This document shows, piece by piece, positions 7,185 to 31,235 of a DNA stretch of 41,657 bases (the first letter of the stretch is position 1; every line of letters starts with the position of its first letter). The notes below the pieces were generated by a model. It saw only the letters and a program-made list of their open reading frames with translations, had not been told where the DNA came from and ran no database searches. Source of the DNA: Escherichia coli (lineage in GTDB: Bacteria; Pseudomonadota; Gammaproteobacteria; Enterobacterales; Enterobacteriaceae); assembly GCF_003334315.1 (NCBI RefSeq), contig NZ_QOWR01000044.1, one strand, 5' to 3'. The position numbers were made by a program, and so were the translations under genes.

Positions 7185-7217
7185 TTGTGTTTCGCTGAAA
7201 GGCGAACGTCGTGTTAA

Positions 7218-7246
7218 GCCGGAGCAGGAGACTGCTCCGGCTTTTT
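7218..7246 (+). terminator. Rho-independent terminator of the deo operon
   Basis: 10-bp stem gccggagcag/ctgctccggc with loop gaga followed by TTTTT. Confidence 0.8.
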
Positions 7247-7348
7247 AGTATCTATTCATCAATAGCAACTGATTTATAGATTTACTATTATTTTTCATAT
7301 GGATAGAAAATAAAATCCATTCAAGTATCTATTCACGAATCTATTCAT
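7247..7348. repeat. AT-rich block with three copies of ATCTATTCA and short palindromes
   Basis: agtatctattca at 7247-7258 and 7324-7335 (exact 12-mer), atctattcat again at 7339-7348; ctattcatcaatag and atggatagaaaataaaatccat are imperfect palindromes. Confidence 0.6.
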
Positions 7349-7608
7349 TTATGTTCAGCCGTCATCCAGGAAGGGCATATCAGCAACTCTGGTGGACAAC
7401 CATAAATTTCTGCCATTTTGCTTTTGATGTTTGAGCTAAGCCGTTCCGTCTTTTCGATCTGTTTTAGAGAATTAATCGAGATACCTAACATTTTACTTAC
7501 TTCAGCAAGCGATAATTTATGCCTGATACGCACGGCGGCTAGCCAGGATATACCCTGGCTTAACATTAAATTGATAATCTCCCGCTCCTGGTTTTCCAGA
7601 TCGATCAT
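7345..7608 (-). CDS. Small XRE/HipB-like helix-turn-helix protein, possibly the N-terminal remnant of yjjJ/hipH
   Basis: 87-aa ORF (MIDLENQEREIINLMLSQGISWLAAVRIRHKLSLAEVSKMLGISINSLKQIEKTERLSSNIK...) with an XRE-type HTH signature (LSLAEVSKMLGISINSLKQIE); AGGAAGG Shine-Dalgarno 5 nt before the ATG; starts 31 bp after the lplA stop on the same strand. Confidence 0.6.
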   Translation of the reverse strand: MIDLENQEREIINLMLSQGISWLAAVRIRHKLSLAEVSKMLGISINSLKQIEKTERLSSNIKSKMAEIYGCPPELLICPSWMTAEHK

Positions 7609-7639
7609 ATTCCCTTCCTTTGGTATTTTAATCAGCGAG

Positions 7640-8656
7640 TTACCTTACCGCCCCCGCTATCCACGTCGACAACTCCCGTAGCTCTTTTTCCTGGTCCGGG
7701 AAGTCAACCAACAGCGCTTCGCACTCTTGTTGCAGCATATCCGCGCGGTACAGGCAGCCTTGCAGTCGCCCGGCGAGGGCTTCCAGCGGCGCGGGGTTGA
7801 GGCTGTCGGTAAACACCTGGGCGCGGGTGATATGGCCTTTTTCAACGTCGAAATGCAGTTCCACGCCGCCCCAGCTAAAGCGTTCATCCAGCAGATGCGA
7901 GAATGCCGGAGCCTGACCGAAGTTCCATTCCCAGCTACTCTGACGGGCAAAGGTTTCGGCGAAGTTTGGCAAGTCTGGCGTTTTGTCCGGGGAGATGATT
8001 TCCGCTTCTACACGCTCGCCATAATGGGCGAAAAAGGCCTTGGTTATGGCCTCGCAAACCTGCTCATGGGTGATCCCCGGCAACAGCTCGGTGAGGTTGG
8101 TCACGCGGGAACGTACCGACGTAATGCCTTTCGCCGCCAGTTTCTTTTTATCCGGATTGAGATAGTTTGCCAGGCGGCTAAGGTCGGCATTGAGCAGCAA
8201 GGTGCCGTGGTGGAAGCCACGATCTTTGGTTTCGCGATAGGCCGATCCTGAGACTTTGCGGTCGCCTTCGACTGTTTTCACCACCAGATCGTTACGCCCG
8301 GACGCTTCGGCGCTGACGCCGAGCGCGTTCAGCGCATTGAGCACAATCGACGTAGAGATGGTTTTATCGTACTCCGGCTTGCCAGCCATAAAGGTAAAGC
8401 AGGTATTGCCGAGATCGTGGAACACCGCGCCGCCACCGCTACTGCGCCGCGCCAGGCGGACGTTATCTTCTTCCATCCGCCGGGTATTACACTCTTTCCA
8501 CGGGTTCTGCGCGCGACCAATCACTACCGTGTCGGCATTGCGCCAGAGAAACAGAACGCGCTGCGTGGCGGGCATTTGGCGAAAAATACACTCTTCCACC
8601 GCCAGGTTAAACCACGGGTCGTAAGAGTCAGAGATGAGCAGGCGTAATATGGACAT
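7640..8656 (-). CDS. lplA: Lipoate-protein ligase A
   Basis: 338 aa ([29 protein letters not shown]...). Confidence 0.95.
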
Positions 8657-29926: not shown

Positions 29927-31213
29927 ATGAAACTCTACAATCTGAAAGATCACAATGAGCAGGTCAGCTTTGCGCAAGCCGTAACCCAGGGGTTGGGCAA
30001 AAATCAGGGGCTGTTTTTTCCGCACGACCTGCCGGAATTCAGCCTGACTGAAATTGATGAGATGCTGAAGCTGGATTTTGTCACCCGCAGTGCGAAGATC
30101 CTCTCGGCGTTTATTGGTGATGAAATCCCGCAGGAAATCCTGGAAGAGCGCGTGCGCGCGGCGTTTGCCTTCCCGGCTCCGGTCGCCAATGTTGAAAGCG
30201 ATGTCGGTTGTCTGGAATTGTTCCACGGGCCAACGCTGGCATTTAAAGATTTCGGCGGTCGCTTTATGGCACAAATGCTGACCCATATTGCGGGCGATAA
30301 GCCAGTGACCATTCTGACCGCGACCTCCGGTGATACCGGAGCGGCAGTGGCTCATGCTTTCTACGGTTTACCGAATGTGAAAGTGGTTATCCTCTATCCA
30401 CGAGGCAAAATCAGTCCACTGCAAGAAAAACTGTTCTGTACATTGGGCGGCAATATCGAAACTGTTGCCATCGACGGCGATTTCGATGCCTGTCAGGCGC
30501 TGGTGAAGCAGGCGTTTGATGATGAAGAGCTGAAAGTGGCGCTGGGGTTAAACTCAGCTAACTCGATTAACATCAGCCGTTTGCTGGCGCAGATTTGCTA
30601 CTACTTTGAAGCAGTTGCGCAGCTGCCGCAGGAAGCGCGCAACCAGCTGGTTGTCTCGGTGCCAAGCGGAAACTTCGGCGATTTGACGGCGGGTCTGCTG
30701 GCGAAGTCACTCGGTCTGCCGGTGAAACGTTTTATTGCTGCGACCAACGTGAACGATACCGTGCCACGTTTCCTGCACGACGGTCAGTGGTCACCCAAAG
30801 CGACTCAGGCGACGTTATCCAACGCGATGGACGTGAGTCAGCCGAACAACTGGCCGCGTGTGGAAGAGTTGTTCCGCCGCAAAATCTGGCAACTGAAAGA
30901 GCTGGGTTATGCAGCCGTGGATGATGAAACCACGCAACAGACAATGCGTGAGTTAAAAGAACTGGGCTACACCTCGGAGCCGCACGCTGCCGTAGCGTAT
31001 CGTGCGCTGCGTGACCAGTTGAATCCAGGCGAATATGGCTTGTTCCTCGGCACCGCGCATCCGGCGAAATTTAAAGAGAGCGTGGAAGCGATTCTCGGTG
31101 AAACGTTGGATCTGCCAAAAGAGCTGGCAGAACGTGCTGATTTACCCTTGCTTTCACATAATCTGCCCGCCGATTTTGCTGCGTTGCGTAAATTGATGAT
31201 GAATCATCAGTAA
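29927..31213 (+). CDS. thrC: Threonine synthase
   Basis: 428 aa (MKLYNLKDHNEQVSFAQAVTQGLGKNQGLFFPHDLPEF...); abuts the thrB stop. Confidence 0.97.
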   Translation: MKLYNLKDHNEQVSFAQAVTQGLGKNQGLFFPHDLPEFSLTEIDEMLKLDFVTRSAKILSAFIGDEIPQEILEERVRAAFAFPAPVANVESDVGCLELFHGPTLAFKDFGGRFMAQMLTHIAGDKPVTILTATSGDTGAAVAHAFYGLPNVKVVILYPRGKISPLQEKLFCTLGGNIETVAIDGDFDACQALVKQAFDDEELKVALGLNSANSINISRLLAQICYYFEAVAQLPQEARNQLVVSVPSGNFGDLTAGLLAKSLGLPVKRFIAATNVNDTVPRFLHDGQWSPKATQATLSNAMDVSQPNNWPRVEELFRRKIWQLKELGYAAVDDETTQQTMRELKELGYTSEPHAAVAYRALRDQLNPGEYGLFLGTAHPAKFKESVEAILGETLDLPKELAERADLPLLSHNLPADFAALRKLMMNHQ

Positions 31214-31235
31214 AATCTATTCATTATCTCAATCA

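Follow-up and report, generated by a model that had tools for sequence, protein, structure and literature searches.

Results

A repeat array between deoD and lplA

The 41,657-nucleotide stretch of Escherichia coli DNA analysed here, which we call the window, contains the E. coli deoABD-lplA-ytjB-serB region. Along the plus strand, deoD ends in an intrinsic terminator hairpin (7216..7243), recovered both by a terminator scan and as an inverted repeat, with a 12-bp stem, a 4-nt loop and a T-run; the hairpin is kept in both E. coli haplotypes described below and in E. albertii. Beyond it lie four plus-strand copies of a 9-mer, which we refer to as boxes, and then an ATG (7351..7353) that aligns with the annotated start codon of yjjJ, also named hipH. 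We call this ATG the relic start codon, as homology to hipH-positive genomes stops here. It is followed by a haplotype-specific segment of 286 bp (7354..7639) and by the conserved flanking gene lplA (7640..8656, minus strand), which encodes lipoate-protein ligase. A minus-strand ORF of 87 amino acids (7345..7608), located downstream of lplA, reaches into the boxes; it is preceded by a strong Shine-Dalgarno sequence and encodes an Xre-type HTH protein (Pfam HTH_3, E=1e-6).

The distal box (7250..7258) is an exact copy of the motif ATCTATTCA and lies 101 nt upstream of the relic ATG. After a 56-bp spacer (7259..7314) that is haplotype-specific, has a GC content of 20% and corresponds to the predicted core-promoter region of hipH in hipH-positive relatives, three proximal boxes follow: box 1 (7315..7323, at -36 from the relic ATG) is the variant ATCCATTCA, with one mismatch, while box 2 (7327..7335, at -24) and box 3 (7339..7347, at -12) again match ATCTATTCA exactly. 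Box 2 is invariant in our alignment of 11 taxa (A4), and the TCA of box 3 is the TGA stop codon of the 87-aa ORF. With starts at 7315, 7327 and 7339, the proximal copies form a tandem array of three same-strand 9-mers phased at exactly 12 bp, and the distance from the distal box to box 1 (7250 to 7315) is 65 bp. The initial annotation had listed the 12-mer AGTATCTATTCA at 7247-7258 and 7324-7335 and a third copy, ATCTATTCAT, at 7339-7348, and had placed the stop codon of the ORF (7345-7347) within the last copy; all of these are present, but the mismatched fourth local copy at 7315-7323 had been overlooked.

The 9-mer is strongly over-represented: the 41.6-kb window has four occurrences of ATCTATTCA where shuffles predict 0.27, and none of 100 shuffles reaches four. 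Three of the four exact copies (7250, 7327 and 7339) fall within 98 bp on the same strand. The fourth, ATCTATTCA(T) at 31215-31223, stands singly, 2 nt past the stop codon of a 428-aa ThrC-like ORF (29927-31213, ending ...MMNHQ) and just ahead of a terminator hairpin, a place that mirrors that of the distal box beside the deoD terminator. This isolated copy at 31215 is probably due to chance.

Two palindromes had also been noted in this stretch. Both exist (CTATT-CATC-AATAG at 7252-7265 and ATGGAT-N10-ATCCAT at 7301-7322), but they are short, both are missing from K-12 and E. albertii, and their arms vary at positions 7252, 7301, 7306, 7317 and 7318 among E. coli strains with the same allele. 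We therefore reject them as operators, being specific to one haplotype and polymorphic within it.

We find no consensus sigma-70 promoter on the plus strand of the window spacer or in the K-12 spacer. The HipB operator sequence TATCC-N8-GGATA is absent from 7185-7353, where the repeats are direct rather than inverted. A search of Rfam 15 gave no match that reaches its gathering score, and we dropped a known RNA family as the identity of the region; the sole hit, to CyaR/RyeE (21 bits against the 47 needed; 7212-7298, minus strand), overlaps the deoD terminator hairpin and most likely reflects that hairpin alone.

hipH has been replaced in most E. coli genomes

In 5426 complete E. coli genomes, the interval between deoD and lplA exists as two alleles. 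The 87-aa HTH gene is found in 4058 (~75%), and the rest, K-12 among them, carry yjjJ/hipH on the plus strand, encoding a HipA-family toxin kinase of 443 aa whose N-terminus carries a fused winged helix; the 5' end of hipH was detected in only 1344 genomes. HipH (YjjJ), a solitary toxin kinase, has been linked to persistence and biofilm tolerance. Loci with the HTH allele also exist in E. marmotae and the cryptic clades.

Comparison of the window with full-length yjjJ loci, a check suggested in the initial annotation, delimits the difference between the two alleles. The terminator, the distal box and a 41-bp block that contains the three tandem boxes are shared with hipH-positive E. coli up to the yjjJ ATG, where the left junction lies; homology then resumes exactly at the lplA stop codon. 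The 286-bp segment thus takes the place of everything between codon 2 and the stop codon of yjjJ, both included, a length of 1329 bp. The intergenic region between deoD and yjjJ in K-12 is orthologous DNA with the same terminator, distal box, three proximal boxes, AGT and CGA linkers, and ATG; the window differs from it by the absence of hipH, by a T-to-C change in box 1, by a T instead of an A at -3 and by a 56-bp spacer that is unrelated in sequence. The similarity of this spacer (7259-7314) to those of K-12 (L002 2563-2618) and E. albertii (L008) is at random level. The lplA stop codon is TAA in the window allele (7640-7642) and TAG in K-12 (L002 3999-4001), where the stop codons of yjjJ and lplA abut.

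A deletion within yjjJ had been proposed as the origin of this allele. The 87-aa ORF runs on the strand opposite to yjjJ and shows no similarity to it by BLASTP, blastn or tblastn, and the window as a whole has no yjjJ similarity by blastn or by tblastn with YjjJ; the event was therefore a replacement rather than a deletion, a reading that the junctions at the hipH ATG and the lplA stop codon also back. On the same grounds we discarded a truncated yjjJ as the identity of the ORF. As to the related proposal that the repeats served as recombination substrate, the left junction lies 3 bp past the last repeat, and the repeats can slip, as one strain has lost a 12-bp unit, but we find no evidence that they mediated the replacement.

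The 87-aa gene is confined to Escherichia and Shigella. Its product aligns only with positions 54-121, the C-terminal 68, of the 122-position family phrog_7241, and shares 36% identity with residues 42-115 of a plasmid protein of 118 aa (relatives, 118-122 aa) encoded behind a RelE/ParE toxin. In about one-third of sampled strains (L004, L005, L021-L024, L121) the gene is annotated as a pseudogene with an internal stop or frameshift. From these comparisons the ORF is best read as an orphan, N-terminally truncated remnant of a HigA-like antitoxin. The operons of its plasmid homologues have TTATAT...ATATAA-type palindromes upstream and no clusters of ATCTATTCA, and in the window the box cluster lies at the 3' end of the 87-aa gene rather than at its promoter.

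The boxes accompany hipH across Enterobacterales

We compared the context of yjjJ in E. albertii, a 69%-identical relative (L009), Klebsiella sp., Citrobacter, Salmonella, Kosakonia, Cedecea, Erwinia and Pantoea; a scan of genome contigs with YjjJ gave E. albertii only, and the other contexts came from protein look-ups. In eight of these taxa, all but Pantoea, yjjJ is syntenic, lying between deoD and lplA or beside ytjB. The same layout is found upstream of hipH in every one of them and in E. coli K-12: one distal box, an unconserved spacer of 55-57 bp and three boxes abutting the ATG, with the three-copy, 12-bp phasing seen in all 10 hipH-positive taxa. Relative to the start codon, the box positions of the window (-101, -36, -24 and -12) are the same in K-12 and E. 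albertii and are shifted by at most 2 nt in Salmonella, Citrobacter, Klebsiella sp., L009, Erwinia, Cedecea and Kosakonia. Nine Enterobacterales hipH loci have the distal box at -99 to -101, and Pantoea has it at -113, always 64-66 bp before proximal box 1. Spacer length stays at 55-57 bp in all 11 taxa of alignment A4, the window included, with sequence similarity at shuffle level; the boxes appear as invariant islands, and the rest of the intergenic region is unalignable. The box 1 variant of the window, ATCCATTCA, also occurs in Salmonella, and E. coli strains with the HTH allele differ from one another in this box (C/T, C/A).

Two kinds of locus separate the boxes from deoD. In Pantoea the boxes are present although the upstream gene is another one and the spacer contains a terminator; and distant HipH genes that lie beside a PIN/Phd toxin-antitoxin pair, RecQ or an integrase carry them as well. 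The boxes therefore travel with hipH, not with deoD. Together with the common layout in every hipH-bearing taxon and the identical positions in the window, this assigns the repeats to hipH rather than to deoD or to the 87-aa gene.

The placement of the hipH promoter can be proposed from Salmonella and L009, whose spacers contain TTGACA-17/18-TTAAAT/TAAATT with the -10 element abutting box 1. If these elements mark the promoter, the proximal boxes would lie over the start site and a short leader, and the distal box upstream of the -35 element. In Enterobacterales, hipH has no recognisable Shine-Dalgarno sequence (L002 2655-2669 and its equivalents in L008-L018), and the gap between box 3 and the ATG is 0-3 nt; in Pantoea (L019) the hipH ATG is preceded by 14 extra nt, including GGTGG. 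In L009, the stretch that separates deoD from the hipH boxes holds about 480 bp of REP/BIME-like tandem repeats and one further ORF, of 163 aa and without a Pfam hit (L009 1356-2323).

Within E. coli the array is unique. Its 37-nt sequence is found in 5281 of the 5426 genomes, at a median of one place per genome, and it is therefore not a regulon site. The idea of a dispersed regulator site or dispersed repeat, for which the initial annotation had proposed a genome-wide search, accordingly fails, the single isolated copy elsewhere in the window being the one extra occurrence that we note there.

The repeat motif changes with the HipH recognition helix

A metagenome scan with an alignment of 43 HipH sequences gave 80 loci, 74 of them analysable, in which start codons were assigned heuristically. 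A three-unit array scoring above all shuffles and with a period of exactly 12 is present in 30 of the 74, and significant arrays with any other period occur in only 2. The recognition helix and wing of HipH are nearly invariant across Enterobacterales; among the metagenomic loci the helix varies, and the repeat motif varies with it. Two or more ATTCA cores at 12-bp phasing occur within 110 nt of the start in 39 of 50 loci whose helix reads SQ[PA]TxSR, against 2 of the 24 loci with another helix (Fisher p = 1.8e-8, a statistic that ignores kinship; 0 of 1480 shuffles).

Other helices come with other motifs. The helix INRSTL[SM]R pairs with T[CT]GTTGCA phased at 12 bp; ISR[AP]TLMR, KSRSTLSR and ISPATLSR pair with 12-bp-phased ATCGTTTCA; VSQTTISR pairs with phased AACTAGTCT; and VSV[PA]T[VL]HR pairs with phased TTATCATAACT. 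Two loci that adjoin an integrase (L037 and L038) have CDRSTVTR in place of SQATFSR and carry TTATTGATGCA at 12-bp phasing. Distant HipH genes at 39-48% identity, to which L037 and L038 also belong, include one with the ATTCA-type motif ATCTATTCA in four tandem units (L032), one with ATCCATTCA (L034) and one with AACCATTCA, ATTTATTCA and ATTAATTCA at 12-bp phasing and abutting the ATG (L036). A distal box at the conserved distance is not generally detectable in distant HipH loci at up to one mismatch, and we claim this feature for Enterobacterales only. Across the divergent-helix loci as a group (L068, L094, L098, L105, L113, L071, L109, L103, L110, L114 and L049), the loci have motifs of their own (TCGTTGCA, ATCGTTTCA, AACTAGTCT, TTATTGATGCA and TTATCATAACT), mostly with 12-bp phasing. 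The occurrence of distinct motifs with distinct helices suggests a helix-to-motif code that may be readable from sequence.

A winged helix at the HipH N-terminus

In an AlphaFold model of HipH residues 1-111 (pLDDT 91.6), residues 1-55 form a winged helix of the ArsR/SmtB type. The best structural matches of these 55 residues are the ArsR/SmtB repressors SqrR, HlyU, CzrA and DNA-bound NolR, at an rmsd of 1.5-2.3 A; sequence identity to ArsR/SmtB structures is only 17-31%, with Foldseek E-values of 0.08 or worse, and a sequence search of the PDB with YjjJ gave no hits.

Winged helices of the ArsR type usually act as dimers on palindromes rather than on repeats in head-to-tail order, which counts against binding of the boxes by HipH. 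So does a ChIP-exo study of tagged YjjJ in K-12, which recovered no binding sites at all (PMC8464067). [quoted passage not shown] The same study found that c-di-GMP induces hipH via its native promoter and binds HipH (PMC11452175), and yjjJ is among the promoters listed in the Reg-Seq preprint. In the literature that we searched there was no description of a HipH operator and nothing relevant on the motif string.

Box variation and probable decay in strains without hipH

In all sampled hipH-positive E. coli the proximal array is perfect, including strains that differ in the first codons of yjjJ. Among genomes with the HTH allele, roughly half have at least one extra mismatch in the array and about half still have it perfect. 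An alignment of 14 HTH-allele strains shows 5 SNP sites in the 39-bp array, a density not significantly different from that of neighbouring sequence (in this sample, with kinship ignored), and one strain with a deletion of a 12-bp unit. In other E. coli strains, three different insertion sequences have entered the region: an IS1A inside proximal box 1 (CT01; L121 1-95), an IS200C between the deoD terminator and the distal box (TB354; L006 1870-2328) and an ISEc60 that cuts the deoD terminator (VL46; L005 1-1183). The SNPs, the unit deletion and the IS1 in the HTH allele, set against perfect arrays in hipH-positive strains, fit the relaxed constraint expected of an orphaned operator.

Two observations count against a pure relic. 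The perfect array in about half of HTH-allele genomes may reflect either residual function or recent loss of hipH, both of which fit; and the array retains the Escherichia-specific AGT and CGA linkers though the neighbouring spacer is as far from K-12 as from other genera.

Discussion

The intergenic region downstream of deoD in E. coli contains a small array of direct repeats whose arrangement is tied to a toxin gene that is absent from the window. We consider it probable that the boxes are cis-regulatory sites of hipH, with autoregulation by HipH as the most likely form of control, and that what the window holds is an orphaned relic of the hipH operator and promoter. The co-variation of motif and recognition helix, the winged-helix model and the single-copy nature of the array together make autoregulation, through binding of HipH to its own boxes, the mechanism with the best support. 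In hipH-positive bacteria, we propose that the ArsR-like winged helix at the HipH N-terminus would bind the boxes, three of which would cover the transcription start and a short leader without a Shine-Dalgarno sequence, with the distal box placed at a fixed distance of about 65 bp on the far side of the core promoter. HipH bound at these sites would be expected to repress its own promoter. In the window, the array ends just before a start codon that has been kept (7351-7353) with no hipH gene behind it, and the array is therefore an orphan; its boxes are most likely an unoccupied relic without function, judging from the gene content of the locus, and the last of them would supply the stop codon of the incoming ORF only incidentally.

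A more elaborate version of this proposal can be drawn up, in which the boxes make up a HipH-specific operator code, autorepression is released by c-di-GMP, and the orphan array is kept in the ~75% of E. coli that lack hipH because it is still active. On this version, one winged helix would occupy each 12-bp unit, head-to-tail on the three proximal boxes; the distal box, about 65 bp away, would allow bridging across the promoter; binding of c-di-GMP to HipH would lift autorepression; and the orphan array would have been retained through a continuing action, for example as an unrepressed antisense promoter or a decoy site. Release by c-di-GMP, if true, would explain the reported promoter-dependent induction of hipH by this messenger. 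We regard it as unlikely that all of these elements hold jointly.

The known system closest in function is the operator set of hipBA in E. coli, O1-O4, which is bound by HipB at TATCC-N8-GGATA and likewise places several copies over the promoter of a HipA-family toxin (PMC8262856). Both arrays are presumed to mediate autorepression via an HTH protein of the same locus. The two differ in build: the hipBA operators are palindromes bound by dimers of HipB, a separate Xre-type protein, whereas the hipH sites are head-to-tail 9-mers at 12 bp, presumably read by an ArsR-like winged helix fused to the kinase. ArsR/SmtB repressors, for their part, are small homodimers that act on inverted repeats, in contrast to the kinase-fused domain of HipH and its candidate direct-repeat sites. 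Head-to-tail sites spaced by about one helical turn, with several near a promoter, are also known from OmpR/PhoB-type regulators (for example the TorR boxes) and from plasmid iterons; response-regulator periods are usually 10-11 bp, however, and those of iterons 17-22 bp, and such sites serve regulons or replication origins, whereas the hipH array has a period of exactly 12 bp, is single-copy per genome and tracks the HipH helix.

This last comparison bears on the principal alternative, namely that another conserved host factor, of the response-regulator type or responsive to c-di-GMP, binds the boxes and controls hipH. Regulators of the OmpR/PhoB type typically use direct repeats spaced by about one helical turn, CTATTCAT may resemble the TorR box, CTGTTCATAT, and the array is retained in E. 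coli strains that have no hipH. The c-di-GMP response of hipH transcription through its native promoter (PMC11452175) and the negative ChIP-exo result for YjjJ (PMC8464067) can be read in the same way. We nevertheless find a host factor improbable: HipH genes have the array even in unrelated genomic surroundings and in distant taxa, at 35-48% protein identity, there is one array per E. coli genome and hence no regulon, and the motif shifts with the recognition helix of HipH while the 12-bp phasing is kept, a form of tracking not expected of a host factor.

Continued activity of the orphan boxes, or of the relic promoter, in hipH-less strains has a slimmer chance still. The region could fire antisense into the 3' end of the HTH gene and lplA, or act as a 3'-UTR element of an lplA-HTH transcript, and several features would suit such a role: the array and its 56-bp spacer are retained in about 4000 genomes, half or so of which have perfect boxes; the spacer has few segregating sites (3 in 52, not statistically significant); and a -10-like hexamer, TAAAAT, lies in the spacer beside box 1. 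Weighing against these are the plus strand, which contains no consensus promoter, the Rfam search, which gave no match at threshold, and the boxes themselves, which gather SNPs, a unit deletion and an IS1 in the HTH allele when sampled hipH-positive arrays are perfect.

We hold it very unlikely that the repeats act as an RNA leader controlling translation of the toxin mRNA instead of as DNA operators. The proximal boxes do fill the whole predicted 5' UTR, and the hipH ATG of Enterobacterales lacks a Shine-Dalgarno sequence; the distal box, though, precedes the promoter position (and in Pantoea a terminator) and so would not be part of the mRNA, and both its fixed distance of 64-66 bp and the way the motif co-varies with a DNA-binding helix indicate that DNA is what is recognised.

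The initial annotation had seen in the boxes a cluster of operator sites for the adjacent HTH protein, and the first half of that reading stands, the cluster being of an operator type; the 87-aa Xre-type protein itself can hardly be the regulator, for although its gene adjoins the boxes and ends within box 3, the boxes are downstream of a gene that itself comes after lplA on the same strand, they are conserved before hipH in nine taxa that lack this Escherichia- and Shigella-confined gene, the gene is a pseudogene in many strains, the toxin-antitoxin operons of its plasmid homologues have TTATAT/ATATAA palindromes in place of a ATCTATTCA cluster, and the motif co-varies with the HipH helix. 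Only adjacency ties the 87-aa gene to the boxes, and in annotation of the window the repeats should not be assigned to it.

On the control of HipH, the literature goes no further than that its HTH 'may bind DNA' and that c-di-GMP acts on the native promoter. As far as the searched literature shows, a family-wide array of direct repeats phased at 12 bp and co-varying with the HipH helix is previously undescribed. The comparative data yield an operator that can be tested, defined by its consensus and 12-bp phasing, by a distal site whose distance is fixed and by the pairs of recognition helix and motif tabulated across the family. Within E. coli, hipH is a presence/absence polymorphism: about one-quarter of complete genomes have the gene, and the other three-quarters or so have in its place an orphan operator beside a decaying antitoxin-like gene. 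Results on hipH from K-12 or from UPEC strains should thus be extrapolated to other strains with care.
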